From a virus: DNA of 64,000 bases. Where the stretch lies: IMG/VR virus record IMGVR_UViG_3300033149_003115, positions 1-64,000 of that record; one strand, 5' to 3'. A program made the position numbers and the translations under genes. Shown here in pieces: positions 10,839 to 63,973 of this stretch (positions are counted from its first letter, which is position 1; each line of letters begins with the position of its first letter). The notes below the pieces were generated by a model. The model saw only the letters and a list, made by a program, of their open reading frames with translations. It had not been told where the DNA came from and searched no databases.

Positions 10839-11231
10839 TTGGGTTATTATGTGAGTGTGATGATAGGTATCCGTACTGGAGGTGTATTTAGTCATCCTCC
10901 TAACCTCAAAGACATGGAGGAACGAATAAAGAAAGTCCAAGAGGAACTAGAGATGTACTATTTTGAAACTGAATATGCTATGACACGTCATAGGCATCTA
11001 ACAATGTTCAAGGGAGACTATGTTGTCTTAGCTGGAGTGTCCAATGGATGGCACTGGAAATATGTGTCAAAGTTTGCTAAGGTATTATCTAAGGAGTTTG
11101 GCACTGAGGTTATGGCTATGACATGGGATGAGCAGACCAACAAGATTAATTGTGGAGTGTTCCTAGATGGTAGAGACATTAATAATACTAACGAGGATCC
11201 TATAGGAAGAATATTGAGGAGAATAGCTTGA
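10839..11231 (+). CDS. hypothetical protein
   Basis: 130-aa ORF, GAGGG RBS, coupled to next ORF. Confidence 0.6.
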   Translation: MGYYVSVMIGIRTGGVFSHPPNLKDMEERIKKVQEELEMYYFETEYAMTRHRHLTMFKGDYVVLAGVSNGWHWKYVSKFAKVLSKEFGTEVMAMTWDEQTNKINCGVFLDGRDINNTNEDPIGRILRRIA

Positions 11232-11767
11232 CCATTAGGTTAGGGGTTTATAACAAGATCAAGAAGGACACTCCAACCATTCTATGTGTATGCTGTCCTC
11301 AAGAATGGCAACATGTATGTTTGAGGGATCAAGATCATAAGCTTCTAGAGCCACCATTCTCTCAACAGAGAGAAAGTATGCCTGTCAAGCTATGTGAAAG
11401 AGACATCATTATCCCCAGCTTGTTCTTCTCATATGATGAGCTGACTATGCTCAAACACATAGATCCATTGTCATCCTCATCCTATTTGGTTATTCTCAAT
11501 GATCATCAGAAACATACCAGTTTCCTAATAGAATGGGATCACAACAGAGAGGTTAGAAAGTCTTATCTCTTAGAGGTAGAGGACATCCTTCCTCATGTTT
11601 ATTTTAAATATCATCCAACACCATCAGGAAAGGTTAGAGCTGAGTACTCCAGAAGAGAGACCCTAAAGAAGCTAGGAAATCTGGCTCCGTACTTTAGGCA
11701 TAAGCTAGGATACATGAATGTAATTGGATTATCTTACAAGCTAGAGAACATACTGGATGATCTATGA
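11228..11767 (+). CDS. hypothetical protein with shared C-terminal tail (ILDDL)
   Basis: 179-aa ORF overlapping both neighbours by 4 nt. Confidence 0.55.
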   Translation: MTIRLGVYNKIKKDTPTILCVCCPQEWQHVCLRDQDHKLLEPPFSQQRESMPVKLCERDIIIPSLFFSYDELTMLKHIDPLSSSSYLVILNDHQKHTSFLIEWDHNREVRKSYLLEVEDILPHVYFKYHPTPSGKVRAEYSRRETLKKLGNLAPYFRHKLGYMNVIGLSYKLENILDDL

Positions 11768-12417
11768 TGAGCAAGGATGAGATCATATATTGTAAGACAT
11801 GGAAATATCAGAAGTGTCCTTTCAGTAGCTTGAAAACACTCCTGGAATACTGCTGTATCTCTTGTCCTAATCTTGAGGAGTGTGAAAGTGTGGGTGTATT
11901 GTGTAGCCAGTATGAGATAGATCCAGATAATTGTCCTCATAGGATAACCGAGAAAGAGATCCTGATAGAGTATCTATAGCTGATATAAGATGACTGATCA
12001 GGAAATCTACTTTTGTAGAGGTAGATATTATCGGGGATGTCCTCAGATAGAGATTAATGGTCAAGTCTATGAGTACTGCTGTAAATCATGTCCTAGATTA
12101 AAAGAATGTAAAGGACTATCTTGTAGCATAAGCTTAAGTGAAACATGTGATCTTAGGTTAACCTTAAAGGACATTATAGTTGAATCTCTATAGTGGTCTT
12201 AATGTCAGAGAACACTAGCAAAGAAGAGGCTTACTGTTATAAGAAATTCAGGTTATCATGTCCTCATCTCCTCTTTAATGGTTACCTTATTCAGTATTGT
12301 TGTAGATCATGTCCAGACCTGGAGAAATGTCCTGAATGGAGGAGATGTCCTAGGTACATGGATAATAGCTGTAAGTATAGACACTCCATGAGGGATGTTC
12401 TTCTAGACACTTTATAG
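11764..12417 (+). other. three tandem Cys-rich family B genes (11764-11979, 11990-12193, 12193-12417)
   Basis: shared YC/FC...CP...YCCxSCPxLxxC...C...C and tails LIEYL, IVESL, LLDTL. Confidence 0.75.
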
Positions 12418-12866
12418 TGATGAGCTTATGAAATGCCCATGTGAATCATGTGAGGAAACAGATGAGAGATGTCCCTTATACTGTGCAGTGTTCCAGGCAT
12501 GGTATAAGGATCATATCCTAGAACTAGGGAAATTAGGATCTAAGAAGTCTAAGAAGAGGAAACACTAAGTGACATGCTCATCAAGGAGTGATCTCAAAAA
12601 TGACTGAGGTATGTGGTGCATGTGAATCCAAGCTATCAGACAGGGTTAGTGACTGCTGTGGTAAAGACGTATGGACTTACTACTCATCGGATGATGCTAC
12701 CTCTTATTGCTCCAGCTGTGGACAAGAGTGTAAGCCTGTCCCACTAGAGGATTATCTCTCATCCCTAGAGGATGAGATTGAGAAGCTAAGGGAGCTAAAG
12801 AGAAGAATCCTCACCCTTGAAGCCTTCAAGGATATCAAGAAAGAGCTCATAGCAGACCTGATCTAA

Positions 12867-12890: not shown

Positions 12891-12903
12891 AGGGGGATCA
12901 AGC

Positions 12904-13143
12904 ATCTCTACTAACCCTTTAAGGACAGGTGATAGATGTCCAGATTACATATCCAGAGAATGTGACAAGATAAAAATGTCAGGTCTAAACATATCTCCAA
13001 ATATTTCCACTTATTGTGGAGAATGTACCGAATGTGGCACTGAATCCCATGAAGTGTGTATCCATTGTCCTCTGATAATAATGCGTAAGTTCCCCAGAGA
13101 GTTTTCTATCCTAATTAAGGAGAAGATAGTAGAGGAAATCTAA
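12904..13143 (+). CDS. Cys-rich family C protein lacking a canonical start codon
   Basis: hand translation ISTNPLRTGDRCPDYI...VCIHCPL...FPREF...KIVEEI*; paralog of 13143 and 41458. Confidence 0.55.
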   Translation: MSTNPLRTGDRCPDYISRECDKIKMSGLNISPNISTYCGECTECGTESHEVCIHCPLIIMRKFPREFSILIKEKIVEEI

Positions 13144-13346
13144 TGATACCTTTAAAGATAGGTGATGAGTGTCCTGATTATATCAGGAAATATTGTAGAA
13201 TAAGAATTGAGGGCTATGAACCACAGTGTTCCCCTTGTAGCATATGTAAGATTGGGAAATACCAAATATGTGTCCATTGTCCTCTAGATGTTATGTTGAG
13301 GTTTAGAGAAGAATTTAGATATCTATTGGTAATGAAGGAGCTATAA
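13143..13346 (+). CDS. Cys-rich family C protein
   Basis: LKIGDECPDYI...ICVHCPL...tail VMKEL. Confidence 0.7.
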   Translation: MIPLKIGDECPDYIRKYCRIRIEGYEPQCSPCSICKIGKYQICVHCPLDVMLRFREEFRYLLVMKEL

Positions 13347-13350: not shown

Positions 13351-14334
13351 ATGAATGATAAAGCCATACAAGATCTATTAGAAGCTATGAAAGACTTTAG
13401 AGAAGATCTAAAGATGAATAAAGAGCCAGAAAATGAATGGGAGATAGCTTCAGAGCCCTTTAGAGGAAAGATAAGCTGGGATGATCTGAGCAGAAGACCA
13501 GATTATGACAGTATGATAACATTACCTACTAAAGGGTCTAAAGCCAAGCCTCTTAAAGTCTTTAAGACAGACACTTTCCTAGATCTATTATTCCTGGATC
13601 AAGATAAGAAGACAATAAAAGGAATCCCTGAAGGAGTTCAGCTAGGAGTGTTAGGAACATCAGGATCAGGCAAGTCTATCCTCATGGAAGAAATAGGGAT
13701 AAGAGCAGCTGCTAAAGGGATCAAGACCCTATATATCACATCAGAGGATATCTTCATTTCAAACACTCCTAGGTACGATCTACAGTCCAGGATGATGTCC
13801 AAAGCTAAGACACTGGGACTAGACTGGAACTCTATCAAGGATAACCTCGTGGTTATGGATACCGTAGCTAACCCAGAGCTCAGAGACTGGAACACATTTG
13901 CTGAGGTGTATAGGTACATAGCTGAGAGACATGATGTTAAGCTATCCATCATAGACTCTGTTACTATCCTGGAAACATACAGAGGATCTCTAAAGTATAG
14001 AGTAATGGAGCTAGCAAGGTTTAACCAAGTGAGAGGGATAACCTGTATCATGGTTAACCAGAGAGTGGGAGAGAGCTTTGACAAGTATGATGTGGCTGGA
14101 GGCATGGGTATCATACATGGTCTTGATGCTACAGTCCTAGTAGACAGAGGTAGAGTCTACTATGGAGATCAAATATCAGATCTGGGTAAGCGAGGAGCAG
14201 AGGTTTACATGGTAAGGGTTACAGACTGTAGATTATGTGGTTTTGTTAGAGAACATATCAAGACCTACATCACTAATGATGGTTTTTTAAGAGTATCAGA
14301 AGAAGGGTTAAAGATACTAAAGAACTATGAATAA
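13351..14334 (+). CDS. KaiC/RAD55-like RecA-superfamily ATPase (archaeal single-domain type)
   Basis: Walker A GTSGSGKS, LYITSE, Walker B SIIDSV, MVNQ, AGGMGIIHGLD. Confidence 0.85.
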   Translation: MNDKAIQDLLEAMKDFREDLKMNKEPENEWEIASEPFRGKISWDDLSRRPDYDSMITLPTKGSKAKPLKVFKTDTFLDLLFLDQDKKTIKGIPEGVQLGVLGTSGSGKSILMEEIGIRAAAKGIKTLYITSEDIFISNTPRYDLQSRMMSKAKTLGLDWNSIKDNLVVMDTVANPELRDWNTFAEVYRYIAERHDVKLSIIDSVTILETYRGSLKYRVMELARFNQVRGITCIMVNQRVGESFDKYDVAGGMGIIHGLDATVLVDRGRVYYGDQISDLGKRGAEVYMVRVTDCRLCGFVREHIKTYITNDGFLRVSEEGLKILKNYE

Positions 14335-14536
14335 AAGAGGTATGATAAAGAATGAGACTTAGAAGAGTAATTAGACTCATAGTTTCTACCCTTGGTATAA
14401 TAATCTCTATAGCTTGGATGATTATCTTTGTTATTTCAAATGCAACTATAATGATGATACCATTTGGATTATCTGCATTGTTTTTCCTTTGTTGTCTAGT
14501 AGATGAGATTGTTAGACTAGATTAGATGATTATGTC

Positions 14537-14755
14537 ATGGATAATAACGATATTATCTGTATGAGATGTGGTAAAAGAATATATTGTAAGAGAACTTGTG
14601 ATCTCTTATCCAATACTTGTATCTGCTTAGAATGTGCTCTTGATATATTTGTCAAACGAGGTTATAGCCTAAAAAGAATCCATGATGCTATCCCAAAGTG
14701 TTATGATGTATCCTCTGATGAAGTATCTAGATTATTGGTGTTAGAATATCTTTAA
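14537..14755 (+). CDS. Cys-rich family A protein
   Basis: CMRCGKRIYCKRTC...CICLEC...KCY...tail VLEYL. Confidence 0.7.
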   Translation: MDNNDIICMRCGKRIYCKRTCDLLSNTCICLECALDIFVKRGYSLKRIHDAIPKCYDVSSDEVSRLLVLEYL

Positions 14756-15012
14756 GCTAGTTAGGGGATCAATGATGAGGGTAGCTGTGTTAAGATCTCT
14801 ACCATCTCCTAAAGGGATACCCAAGGGGATAGTAGAAGTGTATGATGTAGATGCCAAGCTCTTTAGAGAGGAGCTTGAGGGCATAGTGCCTACTAACCCA
14901 GATGATCTTCACTACATAGATGTATGGTTGTCTAACCATGGTAAGCTAATCCATAAGATCAAGATAGACTACTCAATATTATTAGAAATGTAGAAAGAGG
15001 TGAATAGAGAAA

Positions 15013-15614: not shown

Positions 15615-16877
15615 AGATTTTAGCTATAGTAATAGAAGAGCTAGAGTCTGATTAGACAATTAGAAGGTATGAAGTTGAGCTATCTTAAAAGAATTAAACA
15701 GTTCACTGTTCTAGGGAAAACCTTTAAAGTTAAAGCAGGTAAACGACGTGGTGTTGATCTCAAATGTACATGTGGAAGTAAGGAGTTCTCCTTCTTCTTT
15801 GACATATCAATGCTAGATATTAATGAATATGAAAAATACCAGGAATTGTTTGGAAGCATGGAAGCTTATATTATGAAATGTAAGAAGTGTGGTAAGTATT
15901 ACCTGGAACGAGAAGTATGGGACTACGACTACTTCTATGTCAATCCTCTAGTTGAGGTATTTAATGAGAATACTACTAAGAGAGAGTGATTAACTATGAA
16001 ATTAAAATACCCTGATTGTAAGATTTGTAAGAAGCTAGCTACAGAACTGTCTAACTCCTCGGAGATAATACAAGCCATTAATGATTATCATGAAAGCAAA
16101 GGCTCATATGAGCTATTTCCCAAACAATATCAGGACTTGGTGATAGACATAATGTTAAGGATATAGGAGGTAGTAAAGCTGAAGGATGTGTCTTTAGATG
16201 AAGAGATAGATACCCTTGTAGATACAGAGATCCCTAAAGAGATAGAGGACATGATCATCGATAGACTTCTGAGCATAGTTCGGAAGCTCAGAGACAAGAG
16301 CATTGATCCATCCTTATCTGATATCATTATCCAACATATCCTGGACTCCCTCACAGTATCTTGGATGTATAACACGTACACTAGGCTAGTTCAAATGTCT
16401 GAATCAGGTAAGTATCCAGAGCTAGAGTGGTTATTCTTAGAAGGTAAAGGAGAGTAGCTTATGTACAAGGAAATACCCTTACCCAACAAGATCCAGAGCT
16501 ATGATGATCTAGAAGAGAAGATGTATGATCTAGGGTATCATTGGTGGTCAGCTTACTGTGGTATCTGTGATGAGAGGACAGATGAGATACCTGAACACTG
16601 TACTATTTGTGACCATCTGTACAATGGTATATCTAACGTTATCTCTAAGAGCTCTTTAGTCAGCTCTTGGGATGACATATGGCGTTTTAGCTACGTGATC
16701 CTCTCTGATACTATTCAGGACTTGTTGTATTCTGATTCTAAGATTAAAATCCTAGAGGGTACCTTGAAATGGATCTCAGATGAGACGTTTGAGCTCACAA
16801 GTCCCTACATTATCCTAGAGGATGATTTTGAGAATAGATACCTGATAATCAAGTCTATCCTAGGAAGATAACCACCA

Positions 16878-17939
16878 ATGGTCAGATGCTCTGAATGTGG
16901 ACAAGAGATACAATGCTCTTGGGATATATACTTCAGGAATAAGAGGAAGAAATGTATCTGTGATAGATGTTATCTTTATGCCATAGTTGATAACTATGGT
17001 ATAGGGTTCTTAAAGTCTTTAATGAAGAGAGGCTACTATAGATCACCTTGCACTGGGAAAGAATACTCACTAGAGGACATAAAGAAAATCATCATAGTAG
17101 AGGAACTCTAGACATGACCAAGTTCATAGCCAAGTGTGCTGTCTGTGGTAAGCTATTTAGCTGTAATGGTGGTCCTGACTTTAACAAGAAAGACCCTATT
17201 TTAGATCCTGAAAGAGTGGTGAAAGCTGACAGATCATTTGCATCTCTATTCTGTCCTATCTCCCATGATCTCTTCTGTACGTGTGGTGAGTGTCATCTAC
17301 ACCAGCTATTTCGATCATTTGGGATAGAATATCTAGAGAACCTGATCAAAGAGAAAGGATATATTTATCACCCTTGTACTGGTACCAAATATTCTATAGA
17401 AGACATAGAGAAGATAGTACTATTGAGAGAGATATAGCTTGATCTGCTACAGGTGTGGAGCAGAGTTCAAGTGTACCAGGAAAAGATTCTTGTCTTGTAA
17501 AGAAAGATCCATATGTTTTTGTCAGGACTGTGCTCTAGAAACCATTAGAAGCTACTATAACTCATACCCTTATTTTGCTAGAACTGGATATAAGATTACG
17601 CTTAAATTTCTTAAGAATTGTTATGGCAAGGATGTCAGGATAGATGAACTTAAGAAAATATTTCTAGTCCATATATTGTGATATAAAATGGGTAAAGTAA
17701 TCTGCATAATATGTGGTAAAGAAATTGAATGTTCTAGAAGATGTTACCCTACCAAGATTAGTAACTTAACAACTAAATGTCAATGTCTAGAATGTAGGGT
17801 AAGAACAATAGGTGAGTACTTTAGAAAGACACCTGAACCCAAGAAGAGCTTTAATTACTTTCTTAAAGCTCTAGTGTCCTGCTTTAATAACATAGATCCA
17901 GATCATATCAGGAGAAAGCTACTTGCTTCTATACTATAG
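16878..17939 (+). other. four tandem Cys-rich family A genes (16878-17111, 17114-17437, 17439-17681, 17688-17939)
   Basis: CxxCGxx[F/I]xC...CxCxxC...C; tails IVEEL, LLREI, LVHIL, LASIL; the 17048 ORF probably starts at ATG 17114. Confidence 0.75.
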
Positions 17940-17956: not shown

Positions 17957-19500
17957 ATGATAAACATGATCACTATCTTAGAATTTCTAAAGTTCGTATG
18001 TCTCGATCTCTTTAGGATAAAGAGGAGGATGCTTAAGATATGGAGCAGCTATTTCCTATCTGATCCTTTGGTTCTCATTGTGGACACCCTTCTTAGCTTT
18101 GTTATAGGTGTTTCAGCCATAGGGCTGATATCTATAATATATCCAGACTTAGTTAGCATGTTCTTATCCTCAACTATCATAAACATATCCAGAGCTATTC
18201 TGGTCTTCACCTTGATAGGGATAGCTCTCTTGTACATCCTAGAGAAGTGGGATGAGTACACTCTAATGAGGAAGGGACATCCATTGTCTCTGGATCTATA
18301 GAGTGAGAAACATGACTATCATCTTATTCTTAGAGTATGTAATATCCAAGAGCAAGGACAGAACACTTGGACATTTATCAAGATATATCAGGAGATCTAG
18401 AAAAGAGATTAGAGATGGAAACTACTGGTGTCTAATGTTAGAGCTATCTTTACTATTTGCTTATCTAGTCATACTTGGTATCCTAGCTAGCAACCTGATA
18501 GACCTGATAACATCAGGTCATCTAGGAGAAGGGTTAGCTAATTGCTCAATATCCATGTTTCTACTAGGACTAACCCTATTAATCAGACCATCAGAGCCTT
18601 ATCACTTTAAACATGTCAATGATCTCAAGGGGATAAATGTAAGCACTGATGATAGTCTGATCAGAGTCCTAATATCTTACATCATTATCCTTTTTCTATC
18701 CCTGGGCTCAGGGCTTTATGCCAGCTACGATCCTTCATTCTCATCCATATTCTCTACTATCTCCAGATGGATATTGTTAGCATCTATAGCTTACTTCTGG
18801 TATGTCTACCTCAGAATACAATGGATAGACTATAACAGGTTCAAGCTTAGAGTGAGAGATTCTCTATGATGCTTAAGACAGTAGCAGAGTTCATATTGTT
18901 CCTAAGTAGAGAAATATTATACTCCCTCAAGCACAAGGTCTCTGCCTTACTGGATAACAAGATCATGTCTTATGTTATTATAAGACTGTCAATAACACTC
19001 CAGTTGTTCCTGGCTTTCCTGGGGATCCTGGTGATATCATCACATGATATAGGAGACAGATGTTTTAGCTATCTGTGTATTATATCTCTGATCTCTCTAA
19101 TACTGTATCCATACATCTATCTAAGAAAGAAATGGGATGAGTATAAAGATTTTAAGTCCAAGGTGGTGAATGAGATATGATATCTAAGAGCACTCTTATA
19201 GGGTTCATCCACTATATCTTCATTACATATCCATCTGGTTTCCTTAGAAAGAGAAGGGAGTCTCTGGGTAAAGTGGCATCCTATCTAGTGCTCTTGTTCA
19301 TCTCTGCCTTACTAGCATCTGGTGTAATGGGAATAATCAGCTTTCTAGACCCTTCAATAGTTAGGGTGTTAACATCCTCTGAGATCATGTTCTTCAGGTG
19401 TAGCTTCTACCTGAGCATTGGGGTTCTTGTAGCTCTTTTGTTAGACCACTTGTGGGACAGCTATATTAAGTACAAAGAGAGGATAGCTAATGAGATCTAG
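17957..19500 (+). other. four tandem paralogous membrane proteins (17957-18301, 18303-18869, 18866-19180, 19177-19500)
   Basis: N-terminal T[I/V/L]xxF[L/I], 2-4 hydrophobic helices, C-terminal WDEY/WIDY/WDSY. Confidence 0.7.
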
Positions 19501-19523: not shown

Positions 19524-19805
19524 ATGATCTGTAGAAAATGTGGTAGAAAGTTCACTTGTAGAGGTGACACCAAGGGTTGTGTGTTCCAGGAACACTTGTC
19601 AAGAGAAGGGTCTAGGGATGACACCTGCTTATGTGCTAAGTGCTACCTACTAGATAGATGGACATATCTCCATAATGTTCTCTATGCTTCTGATAAGCAT
19701 ATGAGAGACATTCTGGAGATCCTGAATAAGAGGAGATCAAGGATAGGATGTCAATACCTCTCAGAAAAGGATCTAGAGAAGGAATTAGTGATAATGTCTC
19801 TATAG
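19524..19805 (+). CDS. Cys-rich family A protein
   Basis: CRKCGRKFTC...CLCAKC...GCQY, tail VIMSL. Confidence 0.7.
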   Translation: MICRKCGRKFTCRGDTKGCVFQEHLSREGSRDDTCLCAKCYLLDRWTYLHNVLYASDKHMRDILEILNKRRSRIGCQYLSEKDLEKELVIMSL

Positions 19806-19821: not shown

Positions 19822-20827
19822 TTGTTCTCTTCTAGTTATATGATATATGTCAAGCTTATTGGGGGTACACCGAGGAGCATAGAACGCCTCTACAAAAGAT
19901 CTAACAAAGTATTCTCAGAATGTGTCTCTTCTGCTGTCATCAAGAGAAAGATCCTATCTGGTGTTTGGACTGTGGTTAGTGAGGTATTACAGTTCCTGGA
20001 AAGAGAGATATTATTTATCCTGGAGGAGAGAGGGGTAACAAAGGACAAGCTGGAGGATGCAATAATGATCAGTGACAGCATAGCTATATGTCCTATCAGT
20101 AACGAAATAGGAGAGATGTTGGAGGAATATTATAAGTTCAAGGATAAGATCATCAAGTCTTTCTATGCTCCATCTAAAAAGGAACATGAAAGAGTTAGAA
20201 GTGTGTTGATGACACTAGAGTCATTGAGGATATTCTCTCTGATGAAGGACAGAGATATATCCACAATATCTAACAAGCTAAGATCTGTAAGGGTAATAGA
20301 TGAAATATAAAAAGGAAATAGTGATGTTCAAGTCCAAGTATTGTATCTCACTTCTAACCAAGAGAGGGACTTTCTGTTGTAGGATCCTTGGTCTGTTCAT
20401 AAGAGGAGAGGATGGAGTGTATTCCAAAGCTATTGACCCTTATTTCTTTAGATCAACAGACTTCAAGGCTAGATGGAAAATACTTACTCCTATCTTCTCT
20501 CTAATAGAAGATGAGGTAGTCTCTATTCTTAACACTGATTCATCAAGCTTAGAAGTAATATTAAGGGATCTAACAAATGGTGTAGGTACTCTAATCTGTG
20601 CTATTTCAGATGATCTAGGAGATCTTATACTAGAGATCTTTCTCCTCAAAGATCTAGTCACTGGACTTAGCCATAAGTATCCCAGACATGGCTCAGGATC
20701 TCCAGTGACCCCTAAAGATATCCTTAAGATCTTTGAGGATATCAAGGTTTTTTCTAATCTAGACAATAGGAACTTAAGATATCTAGCCAATAGGTTAAGA
20801 TCAATTAGAGTTTCAATAGAGCTATGA
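19822..20827 (+). other. tandem paralog pair of unknown function (19822-20310, 20300-20827)
   Basis: shared IC[P/A]IS..[I/L]G and N[K/R]LRS[V/I]RV..E[I/L] ends. Confidence 0.65.
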
Positions 20828-21206: not shown

Positions 21207-22442
21207 ATGCCAAGAGGTAGTATTAGATCAGGAAATATCTACTCCATAACCCACAACCAGCTAGTTAAGATAGTCAAGAGAGTGTATGAGACTAAGGAAT
21301 CGCTGTTTGTACAGGGAGCTATAGGGATAGGAAAATCAGAAAGTGTTAGAAGAGCAGCTAAGGAGATAGCTCAAGAAAGAGGTCTAGAGTTCATAGAAAC
21401 CAAGTCTCCCAACCAGTATCCAGATAGGTTCTGTTTAGTGGATATTAGACTAGCTCAGAAGGATGCTGGTGAGATCCTGGGGTTACCAGAGAACTATGCT
21501 CTAATAGAGAAGAACGATAACCTCGATATCTTACCTGTCAAGGCTCTAGACGTGTTCCTATCGAACAACCACGATTCTGAGTATAGGATCATAGACTACA
21601 TCACTAGATGGAATCCTCCATCCTGGTTCCCAAGGAAAGGCAATGGTATCATATTCGTAGATGAGTTTAACCTAGCTCCTCCTCTAGTACAATACGCAAT
21701 GTATGAACTCATTAACGATAGAGCTCTGGGAGATTATCACCTACCAGAGGGATGGGTGGTTATAGGAGCTGGTAATAGAGGATCACTGGATGGAGCTACC
21801 ACATTCGAGTTCCCAGCTCCATTGAACGACAGGTTCCTATGGTATGAGCTAAAGATGCCATCAGTAGAGAAATGGACAGAGTATGCAGCTCGTAACGGAG
21901 TGGACTATCGTATTATAGGGTTCCTACAAACCACGAGATCAGCTATATACACCTTTAACCCCAAGTCTAAAGAGAAGGCTTTTGCTACACCTAGAAGCTG
22001 GGTCAAAGCTTCTAGGCTTATTAAAGGGGTGGAGGATGAGGATCTAGTGGAGCTATACCTCTCAGGTGCAGTTGGTAGCTATGTAGCTAAGCAGTTCAGG
22101 GCATACCTCCAAGCTAGGAGAACGTTACCTCCCACAGAGAAATACATCAAAGATCCCAAGGGGACAATGCTACCAAAGGAGAACGATCTGCTGTACACAT
22201 TATGTACTAACTTAGTGGAGTACCTGTCATATCATAAGGATGACAAGGATCAGGGTCTTCCTATACTCAGGAGCATACTGATATTCAGTGAGAGACTGAG
22301 CATGGAGTTTAGGACATTCCTACTCAAGCTAATAAAGCTCTCAGATGAGTCTTACTTCAAGGAGAACATCATTAAAATACCAGAGTTTGATAGGATATGC
22401 TCAACCATATCCAAGTACCTATTAAGAGAGGATGATGACTAG
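21207..22442 (+). CDS. MoxR-like AAA+ ATPase
   Basis: Walker A GAIGIGKS, Walker B IIFVDEFN, VIGAGN, PLNDRF, ATPRSW. Confidence 0.85.
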   Translation: MPRGSIRSGNIYSITHNQLVKIVKRVYETKESLFVQGAIGIGKSESVRRAAKEIAQERGLEFIETKSPNQYPDRFCLVDIRLAQKDAGEILGLPENYALIEKNDNLDILPVKALDVFLSNNHDSEYRIIDYITRWNPPSWFPRKGNGIIFVDEFNLAPPLVQYAMYELINDRALGDYHLPEGWVVIGAGNRGSLDGATTFEFPAPLNDRFLWYELKMPSVEKWTEYAARNGVDYRIIGFLQTTRSAIYTFNPKSKEKAFATPRSWVKASRLIKGVEDEDLVELYLSGAVGSYVAKQFRAYLQARRTLPPTEKYIKDPKGTMLPKENDLLYTLCTNLVEYLSYHKDDKDQGLPILRSILIFSERLSMEFRTFLLKLIKLSDESYFKENIIKIPEFDRICSTISKYLLREDDD

Positions 22443-23718
22443 CATGACTGGAATGAGTGTAGAAGACAAGATAATCAAAGCTAGAGTCCAAATGATATCC
22501 AAAGCTCCATTCTATGGTACTCTGGTGATGAACCTTAACTTTAAAGAAGCAGATCCCAGAGAGATACCCACATGTGCGGTTACCCCTTATGGAACTGTAT
22601 ATTACAACAGAGAGTACATAGAGAACCTGACCCTGGAAGAGCTAAAAGGTGTACTAGTTCATGAGGTGCTTCATGTAGCTTTGCTACATCTGGAAAGAAG
22701 AGGAACCAGAAACATCATCAAAGCCAACATGGCTATGGATTATGCAGTTAACCTCATAGTAGAAGAGGACTTCTCCTTACCTAAGGGAGTATTGCTAGAT
22801 CACAAGTATCAGAACATGGCATGGGAGCAGATATATGATCAGCTACCAGATCCTGAGCTTTGTGATGGAGACTGTAGCAAGTGTCCTCTAGCCAAGGGTA
22901 TGGGTATCCCAGGGAGAGGGTTTGGTAACAAGGCATGTAGGAGATTTGGTAGCTTTGACAAACATATAACCAGAGATGAGCTAGAAAGAGCCAAGGAAGC
23001 TGCTAAGTCAGGTGCATCAAGTGATGATCTAAAGAAGCTAGGAATACCCAAGGAGATCCTGGATGAGGACACCTCCAAGTCTCCTAATTGGAGAAAGATA
23101 ATGTCTGATGCTTATAACTATGCCAAGAACGCAGGCAACCTACCAGCTGGGTTAGAAAGACTAGTGGATGAGTTCTCTCAACCTCAGATATCCTGGAAGG
23201 AGCTACTATCACAGTATGTTAGCAGATCTATTCCCTATAACTTCACCTATCGTAGATGCTCCAGGAAGTCTATAGTGTCAGGACACTACTTCCCATCTCT
23301 CTTGAAGGAGATGATAGAGGTGATGATATGTGTAGACACATCAGGCTCAATAAATGAGGATGATCTAAGGGAGTTCATGGGAGAGATACTAGGACTACTA
23401 AGAAGCTTTGAGAGAGTGGAAATAACATTGATGTCATGTGATACCCAGCTATACCAGGTCAACAAGGTGTCTAATGAATATGATCTAAGAGCATCCAAGC
23501 TAGTGGGTGGAGGAGGTACATCATTCAGACCTGTGTTCAAATACCTGAGAGAGGAAAAGAAGGACACCAAGATCCTAGTCTATTTCACTGATTGTTATGG
23601 GGACTTCCCTGATCCAGATGAGGTTCCATCTGGGTTAACAGTAATATGGGTGGTTACCAGAGATGGAAACCCTGAAGCTATACCAGAATACTTCCCATAT
23701 GTGGTTCAGCTTAAATGA
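22432..23718 (+). CDS. DUF2201-type metallopeptidase plus VWA domain protein
   Basis: LVHEVLH, N.AMDYAVN, MIDAS DTSGS, GGGGTSF, YFTD; usual partner of the upstream MoxR ATPase. Confidence 0.85.
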   Translation: MMTSMTGMSVEDKIIKARVQMISKAPFYGTLVMNLNFKEADPREIPTCAVTPYGTVYYNREYIENLTLEELKGVLVHEVLHVALLHLERRGTRNIIKANMAMDYAVNLIVEEDFSLPKGVLLDHKYQNMAWEQIYDQLPDPELCDGDCSKCPLAKGMGIPGRGFGNKACRRFGSFDKHITRDELERAKEAAKSGASSDDLKKLGIPKEILDEDTSKSPNWRKIMSDAYNYAKNAGNLPAGLERLVDEFSQPQISWKELLSQYVSRSIPYNFTYRRCSRKSIVSGHYFPSLLKEMIEVMICVDTSGSINEDDLREFMGEILGLLRSFERVEITLMSCDTQLYQVNKVSNEYDLRASKLVGGGGTSFRPVFKYLREEKKDTKILVYFTDCYGDFPDPDEVPSGLTVIWVVTRDGNPEAIPEYFPYVVQLK

Positions 23719-32413: not shown

Positions 32414-32415
32414 AC

Positions 32416-52476: not shown

Positions 52477-53190
52477 TCTTAGATGTCTAAGATGGAAGAT
52501 CCAGTGTACTCCTTATTTTTTAATACACATTATGAGGTGATCACTATTCAATCTCTTAGACCAGTATGGGTGGGAGATAAGATGGTATTTAATAAGCGTA
52601 CTAAGGTGATTAGAAAGAACCTCAGTCTGATGGACAAGCTAAGGTATTATTGGAGAGATCTCAGACTATGGATAAGGATGAAGAGCTCAGGATAGCTCCT
52701 AATGTTTATCACTCCTCTACGGGTTCAGAGGTAACATTGAGATCATTGGAACATAGAAAAGGAGCCTTTATCAGATCTAGCTTCCCAGGTTCCAGCATTG
52801 TTCTAACTACGAGATTATCCATGCTCCAGTCAGTCGAAACTATTAGTAAGATCATTATGAGATAGCTTTGTTAATAGGAAAATAGGTGATAGAAGATCTA
52901 TGAATGTCTTGAAGGATAAACTATATCGAGAATATCTGAAAATAAAAGAGGCTCGTGTAGAGCTGAATGACCTGCTATCCCAATGGGAGCACCTATCTCT
53001 AGCCTTTGGCTCAAATGAGAGCTCAGTTAAAAGACTAGAGGATCAGATCAATAATATCTACAAGGAGTTCCCATATCTCTCATCCAAAGCTGATACTCTC
53101 AATATACAGTTTCCATTGATCCTTAGGTTTATTAAGTACATGGACAAGAGGATTGGAATACTTGAAGATCTATAGTGAAGGTGATATGAT

Positions 53191-54111
53191 ATGATGAAGG
53201 TGATAGTAACAGGTGGGTTGGGGTTCATAGGTAGTAACCTGGTGGAGAGGCTAGTAAAAGAGGACTATGAGGTGACTATCTTTGATAACTACCACACTGG
53301 TAGCTTTGCTAATGTGAAAGAGTTCTACGATAGTAAAGTATACGATCTAACTCATCTTAGATACTTTGGTAAGAATGATGTGGTCTTTCACTTTGGGACA
53401 CCATCATCATCCCCTATGTACAAGAGGAATCCTCTGCTAGTATCGGAGGCTATAAGGGACTTTATTAGAGTGTTGGAGTATTGTAAAAGAACTAAGAGCA
53501 AGCTGGTGTTTGCTAGCTCCTCCAGTCTCTACAATGGTAACTATACCCCTTTTAAAGAGAATATGAGCATTAAGGTCACAGATTACTACACTGAGGCTAG
53601 ATATAGTATGGAGAGACTAGCTGAGCTATATTCTAAGCTACATAAAGTTAGATCCATAGGACTCAGGCTCTTTAGTGTCTATGGTCCCAGGGAGGAGCAT
53701 AAGAAGCAGTATGCTAATGTCATCACTCAGTTCCTATGGAAGATGTTAAAAGATGAGCAACCAGTGATCTATGGAGATGGCACTCAGACCAGGGACTTTA
53801 TACATGTCAGTGATGTGGTTGATGCATGTATGTTAGCCATGAATTATAGAACTAAGTTTGAGATCTTCAACATAGGGACTGGTGATGCATACTCCTTCAA
53901 TGATGTGGTAGAGCTTCTGAACCTACTACTTCTTAAGGACATATCTCCTAAGTATATCAAGAACCCTGTTAAGAACTATGTTAAGCACACACTGGCTGAC
54001 ACCAGGAAAGCTGAGAGAAAGCTCAAGTTTAAGTCTAAGGTTGATCTGGAGAAAGGGGCTAGAGGTTTAGTGGAGTATTACCTGTATAACAACTTGTTCG
54101 ATGGGATCTAG
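53191..54111 (+). CDS. NAD-dependent epimerase/dehydratase
   Basis: VTGGLGFIGS, FASSSSLY, YTEAR, RLFSVYGP, GDGTQTRDFIHV. Confidence 0.9.
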   Translation: MMKVIVTGGLGFIGSNLVERLVKEDYEVTIFDNYHTGSFANVKEFYDSKVYDLTHLRYFGKNDVVFHFGTPSSSPMYKRNPLLVSEAIRDFIRVLEYCKRTKSKLVFASSSSLYNGNYTPFKENMSIKVTDYYTEARYSMERLAELYSKLHKVRSIGLRLFSVYGPREEHKKQYANVITQFLWKMLKDEQPVIYGDGTQTRDFIHVSDVVDACMLAMNYRTKFEIFNIGTGDAYSFNDVVELLNLLLLKDISPKYIKNPVKNYVKHTLADTRKAERKLKFKSKVDLEKGARGLVEYYLYNNLFDGI

Positions 54112-54315: not shown

Positions 54316-54783
54316 CCATTTCTCCTTCATCAGGATGTTGGATATCCTCTTCTACCTTAGAAGGTACCTTAGAAGGTACATTTTCTATATTAATAAAATG
54401 TGATATATGTGGTAGAGAAGCTGATATCAGATCTTGCTCTCAGATCTTTGTAAGAGATAAGCAGATATTCCTGTGTGAGGAATGCACAGTGAAAATGTTA
54501 GGTAAGCTAATCACTGTTGTGGATCTCTAGAGGTATTGAAATGAATAACATAGAAGCATTTTATATTACCTTAGACTCTTTTAGACACACAGCTGACATT
54601 AGAGTGGATCTCTCTATTTCAGATCCCTTTAAATGTCATAATTGTGAGGGTTTTATAGACCAGGGGAAAGGATATTTTATTTTAGATCCTAAGAGACACA
54701 AGGTGTTTCACCTCTGTAGAAACTGTGGAAATGAAGTGTTAAAGAAGCTAGAAGTGATAGAATGTTTGTGAGAGTGAATAGAA

Positions 54784-55773
54784 TTGGTTAAACTATCAGA
54801 TATACCTGGAGTGGGTCCATCCACTGTGGAGAGGCTAGAAGCTAAGGGAGTATTAACTGTAGAGCAAATGTCTATTATGGATCCAGAAGAGCTTAAAGCT
54901 ATTCTGGAATGTTCCCTGGCTAAGGCTAAGAAGCTGATCAAAGGAGCTAAGGATCTAAGCAAGGATGCTATCAAGATCCTAGATGGGGATGCACTACTAC
55001 AGGAGAGAAAGAGCAAGATACAAAGAATATCAACAGGTAGTAAGGATCTGGACACTATACTGGGAGGAGGGGTACCAACTGATGCACTAACAGCATGGTA
55101 TGGACAGTTCAGTACAGGGAAAACACAGCTTTGTAACCAGTTGGTTATTAATATGAAGAAACAATACAATAGAAAGTCAGCTTGGATAGAGACAGAGCCT
55201 CAGACCTTGGTGATAGAGAGACTACTAGAAATATCCAAGGCTCAGGGAGTTGACTTTGATCCCAAGACTGATCTATATGTGATAACAGCTAAGTTCATGG
55301 ACTCTCCTGTTCACATGTTCAAGGCATATGAGGCTATAGAGTCTAAGATCAAGATGGGAGAGGACATAGGGCTAATAGTCATAGACTCCTTTAATGCTAT
55401 CTTCAGGAGCACTTACACTGGTAGAGAGATGTTGCCAGCTAGATCAGCTGAAACTGGTAGACATATAGGGTACCTACAGAAGCTAGCATCCAAGTATAAC
55501 ATAGCAGTTGTGATGACTTTACAGGTGATGGGAGTTCCTGACTCTGGTTCTCAGCTTGGAGCCATTAAGCAATATGGGATCAGAGAGGTGCCAGTGGGTC
55601 CTCATGTCCTGAAACATGGGGTTAATTACATGGTTGGATTACAAAGGATATCAGCTAATGACAGAACATGGTCAGCTATAGTGGCAGATGGTCCTGTTCC
55701 TAGGGGAGATTGTGTGTTTGTAATAGATGAGACAGGAATTAGAGACTTCAGGAGTAGAAAGGGAGTAAGATAA
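54784..55773 (+). CDS. radA: archaeal RadA recombinase
   Basis: N-terminal HhH IPGVGP, ISTGSKDLDTILGGG, Walker A GQFSTGKT, LIVIDS, FRSTYTGRE. Confidence 0.9.
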   Translation: MVKLSDIPGVGPSTVERLEAKGVLTVEQMSIMDPEELKAILECSLAKAKKLIKGAKDLSKDAIKILDGDALLQERKSKIQRISTGSKDLDTILGGGVPTDALTAWYGQFSTGKTQLCNQLVINMKKQYNRKSAWIETEPQTLVIERLLEISKAQGVDFDPKTDLYVITAKFMDSPVHMFKAYEAIESKIKMGEDIGLIVIDSFNAIFRSTYTGREMLPARSAETGRHIGYLQKLASKYNIAVVMTLQVMGVPDSGSQLGAIKQYGIREVPVGPHVLKHGVNYMVGLQRISANDRTWSAIVADGPVPRGDCVFVIDETGIRDFRSRKGVR

Positions 55774-56014
55774 ATGAGTAATATAGCTACTTTTTCTATT
55801 AGCCCTAAAACTTGGACATCAGTCAAGAAAAGGTGTCCATTAATAGAGATATGTAATAGGAAAATACCAGAAGACATATTTAAGTTCACTTGTATGTCCA
55901 CTGACTACGTATATTGTGAATACTTTAAGGAACATGCTACTAAGGATATGCTAGACAAGATATTCAAAGAGCCTAAAAAGTGGTTAGCTATGAGAGTAGC
56001 TGAGGACATATAAG

Positions 56015-56347
56015 ATGAATAGCTATCTTGTAGTTCCTTTCTTAGAGACAGTGTACTTCCTCATAGGGTTGAACTTTGGTAGAGCATTTGGTAAGAAGCT
56101 GGATCAAGAGATACAGAGAAGTGAATGGTATAAGAGGAGATCCAAACCTACTAGATGGATGATCAGGAGAATGTTGGACTTTACTCATCACTGGTACATA
56201 GGGGCATTAATGATGATTTATTCTAGCTGTCCAGAAACCTACTGGTTCGGAGCTGGATTACTAATAGACGACTTACCAGACATTCCAAGAAGAATCAAAT
56301 CAGTTTTAGCTGATTTAAAGAAAATGGCAAAAGAAAATAATCCTTAA
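56015..56347 (+). CDS. small membrane-associated protein, probable homing-endonuclease target with replaced 3' end
   Basis: DFTHHW motif; C-terminal part duplicated at 56827-56961. Confidence 0.65.
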   Translation: MNSYLVVPFLETVYFLIGLNFGRAFGKKLDQEIQRSEWYKRRSKPTRWMIRRMLDFTHHWYIGALMMIYSSCPETYWFGAGLLIDDLPDIPRRIKSVLADLKKMAKENNP

Positions 56348-56368
56348 AGATATTATGAGGTTAGAATA

Positions 56369-56821
56369 TTGGACTGGTCTTATATAGCTGGGTTTATAGA
56401 TGGTGAAGGCAATATTGGATTGATGAAAAGACGAGGCACTAAAAGAATAGAACCTTATTTGAAGATGGTGAACTCAAATAGAGAAGTTCTTGAAGAAATC
56501 GAGAAATTCATAGGAGCTGGTGTTGTGAGGTTAAATAACAAAGGTAGCTTTAAAAAGAACTGGAGGAAAACTTATGTTCTTGTGTTCAACTCTAGAGATA
56601 ATATTAGGACTATCTTAAAAAATTGTATAAATGATTTAATAGTAAAACAGAGACAAGCTGAGCTCATGTTAGAGTTCATTAAAATTAGAGATCTCAAATG
56701 TAGATCAGGTTCCCCCTTAAAAGGGAGATCAAGAGGTTCTTCAAGCTTTGATGAAGAATTAAAAATATATGAAGAGATGAAAAAGTTAAACTTTCAACGA
56801 GGTAAGGCACATTATAAATAG
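56369..56821 (+). mobile_element. single-motif LAGLIDADG homing endonuclease gene
   Basis: WSYIAGFIDGEG, LIVKQRQAEL; AT-rich codon usage unlike flanks. Confidence 0.9.
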
Positions 56822-56826
56822 AAAGG

Positions 56827-56961
56827 ATAGGAGCACTTATGATGATTTACTCTAACTGTCCAGAGACTTATTGGTTTGGAGCTGGTATCCTGGTTGATGA
56901 TCTCCCTGATATCCCTAGAAGAGTAAAAGAGGTAATGTCTGATCTGAGGAGAGAGCCTTAA
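56827..56961 (+). pseudogene. displaced original 3' end of the 56015 gene
   Basis: IGALMMIYSNCPETYWFGAGILVDDLPDIPRRVKEVMSDLRREP* versus IGALMMIYSSCPETYWFGAGLLIDDLPDIPRRIKSVLADLKK upstream. Confidence 0.8.
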
Positions 56962-59277: not shown

Positions 59278-60174
59278 ATGAGTGATGGATATAGTAGGTT
59301 ATGGGAAGAGAAGGGTGATGAGTGGGAGATCCTGTATCTAAGCCCTGATGAGATCAAGGGGATATCCCAGTACAATGCTAGGAAGACATTCCCTGATAAG
59401 GAGCTAGAGGAGCTGGTGATCTCTCTGAGAGAAGCTGGTATTAACACCAGACCTATCATCCTGGACCAGCACAATGAGGTGGTGGAGGGTGGTAGAAGAT
59501 ATCAAGCAGCTCTCAAAGCTGGGCTAGAGAAGGTCTTCTGTCTTAGAAAGACCATGACACCTCTGGAGGCTAAAGTAAGATCCTTCATAGAGAACGAGCT
59601 ATCATATGACATGACTGAAAGAGACAGATATCTCTTTGCTAAGGATCTGGTTGAGAAAGAGGGGATCAAGCCAGAGGACATAGCTTTCATAGTGGGAAGA
59701 TCACATAGCACTGTTAGAGAATGGTTAGCCTATGAGAAATACCCAAAGGTGCTCTCAGAATCTGATGCCAGGGATGTGTATGATACTCAGTCAGCTAGAA
59801 AGAGAAAGATCCTGAGGGTCACTATAGATAACCCAGCCTTCCAGGATGATCCAGAGGCTGCTCTCAAGCTAGCAAAACATCTGGACAAGATCAGGCATAG
59901 GACACTGGACGATATTAAGCAGGATGTCAAGGAGGGAGTCTTCAACTCTCATGCATCAGAGAAGGTGGATAGGATAGTGAGGAGGGAGGAAGAGCTCTCA
60001 TCACACCCTGAGAAGTTTAGGCTTAGACATCTAAGGGTCCCTAGAGAGCTGGACAGGAGGCTGATCAAGGTATTCAAGTTTGATTATCCCAAGGATCCAG
60101 TGGAGGATGCTATAGTGAAGATCCTGGAGGACTATGTGAATACAAGAGAAAAAGAGCTGGGGTTTGTACGATGA
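59278..60174 (+). CDS. ParB/Srx domain protein with HTH
   Basis: NARK..., ELVISLREAG...PII...VVEGGRRYQAA, SFIEN, IAFIVGRSHSTV. Confidence 0.8.
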   Translation: MSDGYSRLWEEKGDEWEILYLSPDEIKGISQYNARKTFPDKELEELVISLREAGINTRPIILDQHNEVVEGGRRYQAALKAGLEKVFCLRKTMTPLEAKVRSFIENELSYDMTERDRYLFAKDLVEKEGIKPEDIAFIVGRSHSTVREWLAYEKYPKVLSESDARDVYDTQSARKRKILRVTIDNPAFQDDPEAALKLAKHLDKIRHRTLDDIKQDVKEGVFNSHASEKVDRIVRREEELSSHPEKFRLRHLRVPRELDRRLIKVFKFDYPKDPVEDAIVKILEDYVNTREKELGFVR

Positions 60175-60386
60175 GGGTAGTGATAATCTTTGACACAACT
60201 GAACCATCATTTGAAGCTGAAGTGTTCCATGATGGGGTCAAGAAGAAGAACCTTAGTAACCTGTTCTTGTTACTAAGACCCACTCAGCTTCCCATATATG
60301 AGACCTTCCAGAACATCCTATTTTATGATATTTTAGAAAAAGGGATCAATGCTGTTAAGAAAGAAAGAGTGGTAGAGGAGCTATAG

Positions 60387-62975: not shown

Positions 62976-63428
62976 TCCTAACATAGTGATCACATATCTT
63001 GATCTTGATGACTATCCACACCCTAAGCTTGATCTATCACCACCATACACTTACTCGTTAATATCTTATTGTTATGAGTGTAAAAAGAAGTTCAAGCCTA
63101 ATGATAAGATTATATGGTATAGAGATTTTAAAGACATCTATAGACCCTACTGCTCTATGAGATGTCTAGTCAAGCATATTCTTTAAAGCTAAGGATATAT
63201 TCCTCTTTTCTTATTTTAGATCACACTAGAGGAGAATAATATGCCTAAACCCTTGTATAAATATTCTATGTGGTTATGTCCTCAATGTGGTAAAGAGCTA
63301 AGTGTCTCTAGTGTCAAGTATCATAAAATAGACAATGGTGTGTTCAAGAGTGATAAGGTGATAATAGAGACTACTTATGAGTGTAAAGTATGTGGGTGGT
63401 CTTACTGGGAATCAGAGGAGGTATAGAC

Positions 63429-63767
63429 ATGGAGACCAGGGTTCTTCTTAAGGAGTACTTTAAGGATAAGATAGTGAAGGATAAGAAATGTCCTTATTGT
63501 GACCAAGTGTCATTAGTCTTACAAAGGGATGTTGACTACCACACATTACGTTCTTACTACTGGTGTACTGAGTGTGGATTTGCTATAAGCTCTTACTTAT
63601 TAGATAACCCTGAACATGCTGAGGATGCTTTGAAAGTAGCTGTGGAATGGTATAACGAGCTATTGGAGAAAAAGAAGGGGTTAGAAAGAAGCTTAGGGTA
63701 TGTAACTGACAGGCTAAGGAGAGCTGGTAAGAAGGTACTGAGATCAGTGGTGATCGATGAGCTATGA
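63429..63767 (+). CDS. zinc-ribbon protein with coiled coil
   Basis: CPYC...CTEC; GGAGGT RBS; tail VIDEL. Confidence 0.6.
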   Translation: METRVLLKEYFKDKIVKDKKCPYCDQVSLVLQRDVDYHTLRSYYWCTECGFAISSYLLDNPEHAEDALKVAVEWYNELLEKKKGLERSLGYVTDRLRRAGKKVLRSVVIDEL

Positions 63768-63973
63768 CCAGGTGCGAGTCCTGTGGATCTTTCTTTAATG
63801 GGAGGGGATCCAACAATCTATGCTTAAGGTGCTTCCTGAAGGTTCTGGAACATTTCCCATTCTTGAAACATCTGTTGTACTCATCTGATGAGCTCTTTGA
63901 TCTATACTTTACCACTTATTATGATGAGCCAGTTGACAAGATCAGAAAAATGATAATAGCTGAAATACTGTAG
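63764..63973 (+). CDS. small Cys-rich protein related to family A
   Basis: CESCGSFF...CLRC; tail IAEIL. Confidence 0.6.
   Translation: MTRCESCGSFFNGRGSNNLCLRCFLKVLEHFPFLKHLLYSSDELFDLYFTTYYDEPVDKIRKMIIAEIL

Follow-up and report, generated by a model that had tools for sequence, protein, structure and literature searches.

MoxR-like AAA+ ATPases occur in pairs with vWA proteins that carry a MIDAS (an adhesion site dependent on metal ions); NorQ-NorD, CbbQ-CbbO and RavA-ViaA are described examples, to which the MIDAS of Rea1 and p618/p892 of the virus ATV can be added, and the known pairs serve one or few defined clients. In NorQ/NorD acidic client residues are bound at the MIDAS, and a 'finger' of the vWA protein plugs the MoxR ring (PMC9976466), and peptide capture by the vWA domain has been regarded as the common denominator of MoxR systems, with the vWA protein as a co-chaperone (Kaur et al. 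2020, PMC7159879). Pairs of this kind are spread widely among phages and archaeal viruses (phrog_1297, phrog_1314); group 2.2 jumbo phages encode a pair of MoxR and a metallopeptidase-vWA protein, for which virion protein processing was proposed and clients were not identified (Iyer et al. 2021, PMC7824862). Here, we analyse the first 64,000 nucleotides (the window) of the IMG/VR virus record IMGVR_UViG_3300033149_003115, a genome of 113,897 bp (G000) that encodes such a pair together with dozens of small, unrelated proteins ending in the same short hydrophobic tail. The tail had been noticed in an earlier note on this DNA, and its enrichment is confirmed here. The best-supported reading is that of a C-terminal address tag on accessory proteins; since the tail is found, among the genomes compared, only where the MoxR/vWA pair is encoded, it is probably an address label and possibly read by the pair. 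In the full-text literature searched, including the paper on Bathyarchaeia viruses, no description of such tails was found.

As in the known pairs, the MoxR-like ATPase of G000 (411 amino acids; 21207-22442, plus strand) adjoins a vWA protein with an intact MIDAS (428 amino acids; 22432-23718, plus strand), and as in the jumbo phages this vWA protein has an HExxH peptidase at its N terminus. The differences lie in the clients: no published pair that we found is tied to dozens of unrelated small proteins with a shared C-terminal tag, and the tail carriers are small non-structural proteins of an accessory region, in contrast to the virion proteins proposed for the jumbo phages. In FxSxx-COOH modules (Haft & Basu 2011, as given by Kaur et al. 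2020, PMC7159879) a zincin goes along with small, diverging proteins that share a conserved C-terminal peptide, with a link to vWA-MoxR and often with radical-SAM/SPASM enzymes. A zincin-type peptidase, a vWA domain and a MoxR-like ATPase are also present here, and the island of G000 holds a radical-SAM gene with a sub-threshold SPASM-like match. However, the motif is another one, and the carriers are folded-domain or membrane proteins of viruses, as many as about 44 in a genome; here the peptidase and the vWA domain form one protein, the cleavage activity of which is putative. A precursor of the FxSxx-COOH type was rejected for the same reason of sequence: the tails read hydrophobic-hydrophobic-[E/D]-x-[L/I] and not FxSxx, RxD or poly-acidic.

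Hydrophobic C-termini as signals for ATP-dependent machines are well known from the ssrA tag and other non-polar C-termini (ClpXP, FtsH, Tsp), from the XB tail of SspB (ClpX) and from the HbYX tails (20S proteasome). The tails described here share with them a hydrophobic extreme C-terminus on unrelated proteins and, as proposed below, one ATP-dependent machine; FtsH is also similar in its parts, AAA+ plus zinc protease, which would be split here into MoxR and the HExxH peptidase. The sequences are different, however, the candidate reader is of the MoxR/vWA type and not Clp, FtsH or the proteasome, and degradation is putative. The C-terminal loading peptides of encapsulins and the N-terminal capsid-targeting sequence of phage T4, which attach to an HK97-fold shell from the inside or to a scaffold, likewise use one short terminal peptide as an address on unrelated proteins of one element. 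In contrast to these, the tail is found on membrane proteins and on about a quarter of the genes, far from the structural module, and it tracks MoxR/vWA and not the capsid.

A shared C-terminus on unrelated small proteins

The genes in the window are densely packed and nearly all on the plus strand, and matches in Pfam include a family-B DNA polymerase (PolB), RadA, KaiC-like and classical AAA ATPases, methyltransferases and an RNA ligase; the structural genes are located outside the window, further along the record. PolB is 22-24% identical to PolB of haloarchaeal tailed viruses, and the closest cellular relatives of RadA (around 35% identity) are in metagenome bins of Thermoproteota/'Crenarchaeota'. 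By these relationships the record is an uncultivated tailed archaeal virus, with a hint of Thermoproteota as host.

Open reading frames (ORFs) were called greedily, longest first, which gave 199 ORFs in the genome, and a tail was defined as [LIVMF][LIVMFA]xx[LI] at the C terminus, with the internal frequency of 0.021 as background. Between 11228 and 63973 the pattern is matched by 44 of the 120 ORFs, where 2.5 are expected, and by none of the 79 ORFs in the rest of the genome. The carriers, about a quarter of the virus genes, are mostly small and otherwise unrelated. Together with four near-misses (LLTELL, ITVVDL, VVTYEL, SILLEM), the strict matches come close to the roughly 50 proteins counted by hand in the earlier note. 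Counting by family, a control for the paralogy that the note had named, does not remove the enrichment: 24 of the 92 BLAST clusters in the region bear the tail versus 2.4 expected, and in 20,000 simulations the maximum was 10. The tail-bearing clusters comprise a zinc-ribbon family with 14 members, Cys-rich families of 7 and 3, a membrane-protein family, a family with 2 members and about 17 singletons, some of them coiled-coil, which agrees with the range of carriers described before. Among 98 small proteins, position -1 is L or I in 52 and position -8 is K or R in 47, with an acidic bias at -3 and -2. Large enzymes had been said to lack the tail, and indeed it occurs in just 2 of the 22 proteins with more than 200 amino acids, in one of them probably by chance (an NAD-epimerase at 53191-54111 that ends LFDGI). 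The match at 39716-40021 (minus strand, LLILFL) is probably a spurious ORF and no gene, because it is antisense in a plus-strand region and highly hydrophobic. Altogether, the tail enrichment is real and far above what chance, paralogy or overlap with ribosome-binding sites would give.

In a genome as tightly packed as this one, the ends of genes could also be shaped by signals for the next gene, that is by a ribosome-binding site that overlaps the tail, a start context or some other signal at the junction, with the tail as a by-product at the nucleotide level. Words like GAGG or GTGAT are able to encode E-E/E-D and V-I, and the tail rate does peak in genes that end 6-14 nt before the next start (13/16). 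It far exceeds 2%, however, in every gap class: 11/26 in overlapping genes, 6/11 at 0-5 nt, 6/17 at 15-30 nt and still 5/24 at more than 30 nt, so that stratification by distance, another check proposed earlier, left the enrichment in place throughout. A Shine-Dalgarno 5-mer of GGAGGTGATC is present in the last 18 nt of only 9 of 42 tail genes, with none in the other 33. Codons are diverse at every tail position, including the hydrophobic ones; at -1 all six Leu and all three Ile codons are seen, and the terminal Leu codons follow genome usage (chi-square p=0.17). Codon diversity, 5-mer counts and gap classes thus dispose of the earlier caveat that an overlapping GAGG site accounts for some of the acidic residues. 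Related viruses that are equally compact, with similar use of Shine-Dalgarno sequences, are without tails. The complete relative G001, whose RadA is 51% identical and which has 57 core proteins in common with G000, has the tail in 1 of 172 ORFs; therefore, compactness, base composition and use of ribosome-binding sites do not produce it. Selection acts at the amino-acid level, not at the nucleotide level. An explanation at the nucleotide level is effectively refuted, and of all alternatives considered we give it the least credence, next to none.

The signal is also bound to the very end of the protein. In the tail-rich genomes the motif ends exactly at the C terminus (offset 0) in 153 cases, at offset 1 in 44 and at each offset from 2 to 24 in 16-38, and tail-free genomes have no peak at offset 0. 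This sharp peak suggests that the free carboxylate, or the lack of an extension, is itself under selection.

A consensus was derived from one representative of each tail-bearing cluster in all genomes (n=123): E at -12, T/S at -10, K at -9, E at -7, hydrophobic residues at -6, -5 and -4, E at -3 (58/123), any residue at -2 and L/I at -1. In short, it reads hydrophobic-[S/T]-x-x-[E/D]-hydrophobic-hydrophobic-hydrophobic-[E/D]-x-[L/I]-COOH, about 8-12 residues. From this pattern the tail is predicted to begin with an S/T-x-x-E helix N-cap and to continue as an amphipathic helix for two to three turns. Lineages have flavours of their own, such as VIEEL, FLExL, LLEKL and LAxxI. The AlphaFold2 model of a family-1 protein (33680-33922; pLDDT 83, pTM 0.70) has a zinc-ribbon hairpin and three helices, the last of which comprises residues 68-79, with a block-mean pLDDT of 94 and 89 over residues 61-80; Foldseek against the Protein Data Bank (PDB) gave no match to it at E<=0.001. 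The model of a carrier from G004 (pLDDT 77) is a five-stranded barrel with a terminal helix at residues 80-87, for which Foldseek found only weak chromo-barrel/Tudor matches in the PDB (E ~0.01, TM ~0.6). Judging by these two models, the same terminal helix ends at least two unrelated folds, and by prediction membrane and coiled-coil proteins as well.

Such helices could be there without any reader in trans. In that case the tail would be the last structural helix of fast-evolving superfamilies of small proteins, which spread by duplication, N-terminal replacement and extreme divergence and whose gene ends were trimmed to the last core residue. Expansions of paralogues do swell the count (14 members in family 1, 7 in family 2), the G004 carriers seem for the most part to belong to a single barrel superfamily, both monomer models have good confidence and such a helix is part of chromo-barrels, and in distant homologues of family 1 the tail is mostly kept (about 14 of 21). 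On the other hand, the 24 tail-bearing clusters of G000 are unrelated by BLAST and include membrane, coiled-coil, Cys-rich and zinc-ribbon proteins, the two modelled folds are clearly different, and the offset-0 peak and the terminal L/I (52/98) are absent in relatives that are equally compact. Only one tail protein, of 79 amino acids (55774-56013, plus strand, ..RVAEDI), has a homologue in a tail-free genome, and this lone pair of orthologues differs exactly in the tail: the G000 protein ends ..WLAMRVAEDI, the one from G001 ..WMKEYEEEME. We consider a purely structural or inherited helix unlikely, though a live rival.

Distribution of the tail and of the MoxR/vWA pair

An exhaustive profile search with family 1 retrieved small homologues in other metagenomes, of which about 14 of 21 keep the tail. 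One of them led to contig L009 (13.7 kb), where 6 of 32 ORFs match the strict pattern and looser matches include AVVEEL, LVVEGL, WILEEI and IVLERL. The carriers on this contig are unrelated to those of G000; the only large genes common to both are the MoxR-like ATPase and the HExxH-vWA protein, at 45-46% identity. Over G000, G002, G003, G004/5, G006/7 and L009 we count 189 tail proteins in 123 BLAST clusters. Another homologue of family 1, P0010 (161 amino acids on a metagenome contig of 1.3 kb), is a natural tandem fusion of two zinc-ribbon modules with the tail (..IVIDEL) on the second copy only. P0010 and a single vWA protein, used as queries, retrieved no related loci in IMG/VR.

One scan of IMG/VR contigs gave 361 vWA relatives confirmed by tblastn. 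From a search based on vWA, 80 viral loci were inspected, and strongly tail-rich among them are L015 (26/60), L016 (20/47) and L014 (20/59); the remaining 76 loci, pooled, are at chance (45/2149 = 2.1%). An unbiased scan of the 80 phage vWA loci for C-terminal bias had only L014-L016 as outliers; L086 (z=5) had no readable C-terminal motif.

To judge co-occurrence, a sample was used that had been gathered through RadA or PolB, independently of vWA. Where the pair is present, tails are found in 44/199 (G000), 14/210 (G002), 14/178 (G006), 16/190 (G007) and 38/282 (G004) ORFs; the binomial P lies between 1.5e-4 and 2e-33. Where it is absent, the counts are 1/172 (G001), 1/96 (G008), 2/120 (G009) and 1/46 (contig C34 from Guaymas), and ten PolB relatives without the pair (G011-G020) have 16/780, again chance. 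Altogether, 5 genomes are positive, 14 negative and none discordant, which gives a naive Fisher p of about 9e-5, to be read with the fact that several negatives are fragments and the independent positive lineages are few. In a pan-genome clustering of 8 tail-rich pieces and 3 tail-free genomes (other than C34 and G011-G020), no families but MoxR and vWA occurred in every one of the former and in none of the latter. MoxR/vWA had been listed earlier only as one target for screening, and it alone among the components turned out to go together with the tail from genome to genome. The pair has tail genes on its flanks or between its two members in every lineage. A quick maximum-likelihood tree of vWA places all tail-rich genomes in one clade of 9 members (SH-aLRT 99), and at the loci of the 55 sequences outside it tails are at the chance level. 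Three further members of the clade (L017, L018, L023) have 1-4 tails each, some directly beside the pair. As a side observation, an SPFH/Band-7 domain protein of about 205 amino acids (L009:11621-12238, with homologues in G002, G004, G006 and G007) is found in tail-rich genomes only, and not in G000.

What the earlier note had said of the tail as an address is supported in part and agrees with all results: the signal is at the protein level, exactly at the C terminus, on unrelated folds, and it recurs on non-homologous proteins in other lineages. Of the hubs it had suggested, the AAA+ ATPase at 48859 is not supported and nothing points to the capsid (see below); the mechanism, be it docking, degradation or packaging, is putative. 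That the tag is read in trans, with the MoxR/vWA-metallopeptidase pair as the leading candidate reader, is to us a tentative reading with somewhat less than an even chance.

A host factor could read the same tag, be it a protease or unfoldase for non-polar C-termini or another hub, and the MoxR/vWA pair would then merely reside in the same island. A signal at the protein level and exactly at the C terminus fits a host reader equally well, FtsH, ClpXP and Tsp classically take non-polar C-termini as degrons, the presence of the pair does not suffice for tails, and the tails of G002 are far from it. However, relatives without the pair are at chance (4/388 in G001, G008 and G009; 16/780 in G011-G020), although this may also reflect a difference in host; only the MoxR and vWA families match the tail distribution in the clustered genomes, and the lineage-specific flavours of the tail suit a co-evolving viral reader at least as well. 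A host reader is in our view improbable, to the same degree as the purely structural helix, and like it a live rival. Even then, the tag would unite more than 120 unrelated orphan families from several lineages, with a RadA closest to Thermoproteota, under one functional label.

Several points weigh against a tag that is read by the pair. Co-occurrence could be linkage, as the tail genes and the pair share one variable accessory island, and because there is one island and only about 3-5 independent tail-rich lineages, the concordance counts overstate independence. The pair is not sufficient for tails, since 55 other phage vWA lineages are without a shared tail, and in G002 the tails are 15-50 kb away from it. 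In both monomer models the terminal helix is fairly confident (block-mean pLDDT of about 89-94 over the last 10-20 residues). A C-terminal helix is also a normal part of chromo-barrel domains. For these two reasons the helix may, in some families, be packed on its own domain and not be free to dock. Finally, between homologues from different lineages the identity of tail residues is 0.30 versus 0.35 for the rest of the protein; only the pattern is kept.

Candidate readers of the tail

The MoxR-like AAA+ ATPase of G000 (21207-22442), the candidate motor of the tag reader, matches phrog_1297 'ATPase' (E=1.6e-79). In Pfam it has weak matches to AAA_5, AAA_3 and AAA_16 (E ~0.004-0.008) that are below their cut-offs, and in NCBIfam it has no match; the label MoxR is based on the gene context and on Iyer et al. 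(2021). The gene for the candidate tag receptor (22432-23718), an HExxH metallopeptidase (DUF2201_N) fused to a vWA domain (PF13203, E=5.6e-38; PF09967, E=1.5e-19), overlaps the ATPase gene by 11 nt. In an alignment of 50 sequences H77 of the HExxH motif is invariant and H73, E74 and H82 are nearly so, and the MIDAS residues (DxSxS..T..D) D298, S300, S302, T359 and D383 are invariant or nearly so. The peptidase domain has weak profile matches to M48, HtpX, BepA and MJ1213, and the vWA profile has a weak match to integrin I-domains around the MIDAS. In G007 the vWA-peptidase (G007:C1:47311-49596) is one ORF of 761-763 amino acids with a stop-free insert of about 330 amino acids that divides the peptidase half from the vWA half and may be an intein or an additional domain. 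MoxR homologues at the vWA loci L013-L092 have conserved ends, many of them acidic-hydrophobic-hydrophobic-hydrophobic-COOH (..GRDLLL, ..HQDVLL, ..GAELVL), with ..[DE]L[IL]P[SN]x in a further subgroup. The MoxR of the tail-rich archaeal viruses ends instead in KYLLREDDD, KYILSMEREDEDE, KYLIED, KYFEI or DYLL. This end may be a docking tail of the ATPase and may be related to the tails of the small proteins.

How could the pair read the tail? The tail sits on dozens of small proteins of unrelated fold, accessory and probably early ones, and one common partner would read it in trans. If NorQ/NorD, CbbQ/CbbO and Rea1 are a guide, capture of the tail would fall to the vWA protein, and an acidic residue at -3 or the terminal carboxylate could complete the metal site of the MIDAS; the conserved Glu at -3 and the carboxylate are plausible ligands in the light of this analogy. 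Alternatively, the tail might lie in the cleft of the peptidase. The MoxR ring would then remodel or load the tagged protein or feed it for cleavage, so that its fate might be docking, timed proteolysis or assembly. The predicted complex of the vWA-peptidase with 33680-33922, Mg and Zn, from alignments of 50 and 30 rows, had a score of 0.01 against a mark of 0.32 and decides neither way.

Integrin-type MIDAS ligands contain motifs such as LDV, IDS, LDT and IET, and the G000 tails LIDTL, VIETL, IVESL and LLDTL resemble them in having an acidic residue between aliphatic ones. Other lineages, however, use FLExL or LLEKL, and integrin ligands are internal loops, not C-terminal helices.

It is tempting to speculate further that one subclade of viral MoxR/vWA pairs is a tag-addressed system that recognises the free C terminus hydrophobic-hydrophobic-E-x-L/I on dozens of fast-evolving early or accessory proteins and either docks the tagged proteins as interchangeable adaptors or destroys them on schedule, as a split, virus-encoded timer protease similar to FtsH. 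This we regard as rather doubtful, more so than a reading of the tag by the pair as such. If true, a client code would for the first time be defined for a MoxR-vWA pair of a phage or an archaeal virus. A tag confined to genomes with one subclade of the pair would in itself offer a direct way in to the viral clients, and would assign a whole class of orphan small viral proteins to one pathway. It could also be of use as a portable tag for protein targeting in archaeal systems.

A different hub within the genome had been suggested earlier, the classical AAA+ ATPase encoded at 48859-50232 (FtsH/Cdc48/PAN/CdvC-like), which would read the tail as a degron or as a helix like the MIT-interacting motif (MIM). 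It is a classical AAA protein with its AAA module at residues 200-420 and an uncharacterised N-terminal region of about 200 amino acids. However, the other tail-rich genomes (G002-G007, L009), and indeed all related viruses examined, have no homologue of it, which excludes it as a general reader, and the tail does not match the MIM1 consensus. We assign it a very low probability, barely above that of a by-product at the nucleotide level. The capsid, also named earlier as a hub, has nothing that points to it, and its genes are common to the tail-free G001.

Further candidates were rejected on their motifs or their distribution. The consensus of MIM1 is (D/E)xxLxxRLxxL(K/R); docking of the type ESCRT-III MIM/Vps4-MIT does not fit as the tail ends with L/I and not with a basic residue, and the sole CdvC-like AAA+ (48859) is absent from other tail-rich genomes. 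A PCNA-interacting peptide (PIP box) is Qxx[LIM]xx[FYW][FYW] at the C terminus, and the table of tail positions has neither a conserved Gln nor an aromatic pair. An encapsulin-type or capsid-targeting peptide is at odds with G001, which has the structural module in common with G000, the two major capsid paralogues included, yet 1/172 tails.

Tail genes and neighbouring genes

All tail genes that follow are on the plus strand. Close to the pair, three family-2 Cys-rich genes lie directly downstream of the vWA gene (23870-24446; LLLEVL, LLIETL, VLLKEL). They are followed by a gene for a protein of 246 amino acids (24461-25201, ..GVVDVL), a conserved neighbour of the MoxR/vWA pair: its orthologues in G002, G006 and G007 all bear the tail and are located just downstream of the pair, and the protein has no match in Pfam, NCBIfam or PHROG. 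Upstream are two membrane-protein genes of family 5 (18866-19500; KVVNEI, RIANEI), whose products have hydrophobic segments and then WDEYxxFKSKVVNEI, a family-1 gene (19524-19805, ..LVIMSL) and a family-9 gene for 162 amino acids (19822-20310, ..RVIDEI) with a paralogue at 20300-20827 that ends RVSIEL.

The first tail gene of the window is a singleton of 179 amino acids (11228-11767, ..NILDDL), followed by three tandem Cys-rich genes of family 2 (11764-12417), namely 11764-11979 (ILIEYL), 11990-12193 (IIVESL) and 12193-12417 (VLLDTL). Then come a gene for 92 amino acids with zinc ribbon and coiled coil (12588-12866, ..LIADLI), two Cys-rich genes of family 4 (12976-13346; 12976-13143, KIVEEI, and 13143-13346, LVMKEL), a family-1 gene, with zinc ribbon and helices (14537-14755, ..LVLEYL), and a gene for 56 amino acids (15996-16166, ..DIMLRI). 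Between 17048 and 17939 there are three more, at 17048-17437 (family-1-like, VLLREI), 17439-17681 (FLVHIL) and 17688-17939 (LLASIL).

Downstream of the pair, a gene for 86 amino acids with zinc ribbon and coiled coil (26523-26783, ..IIADEI) and a family-2 gene (31542-31751, ..YVMEIL) precede two singletons (32006-33127), a membrane protein at 32006-32413 (FVIEDI) and a protein of 195 amino acids at 32540-33127 (EMIEDL). Family 1 forms an array at 33130-36385, with tail genes that start at 33130, 33383, 33680, 33935, 34168, 34647, 34950 and 36146; within it are the near-miss that starts at 35605 and ends LLTELL and two singletons, 35460-35594 (LIVCEL) and 35857-36156 (LVANDI). The remaining tail genes are more scattered: one for 99 amino acids (37590-37889, ..ILVNTL), one of family 4 (41458-41646, ..KLINEL), a coiled-coil gene for 91 amino acids (52900-53175, ..GILEDL), genes for 84 (54517-54771, ..EVIECL) and 71 amino acids (60171-60386, ..RVVEEL) and two at 63390-63973, of which the first (63390-63767, VVIDEL) has zinc ribbon and coiled coil and the second (63764-63973, IIAEIL) is family-1-like.

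The radical-SAM gene of the island (40557-41366; SPASM-like match, sub-threshold at E=0.0054) begins on the final base of a gene that is Cys-rich and family-1-like (40222-40557). Homologues are found within about 6 kb of MoxR/vWA in G006 (13926-14759) and G007 (55372-56178), adjoining homologues of 39027-39602, and the Cys-rich tail families might be substrates of the enzyme. Beyond the window, in the tail-fibre region of the genome (102984-108463), near-pure Cxx-repeat proteins adjoin a further Cys-rich protein of 426 amino acids; BLAST groups the repeat proteins with Cys-rich family 2 because of low-complexity Cys content only. A LAGLIDADG endonuclease gene (56369-56821, in the region 56015-56961) lies between a gene for 110 amino acids and an ORF of 40 amino acids that repeats the C-terminal part of that gene. 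Finally, a protein of 556 amino acids with a GHKL/MORC-like ATPase domain (HATPase_c_3, E=6e-13) is encoded at 2499-4169 and is absent from the related viruses.

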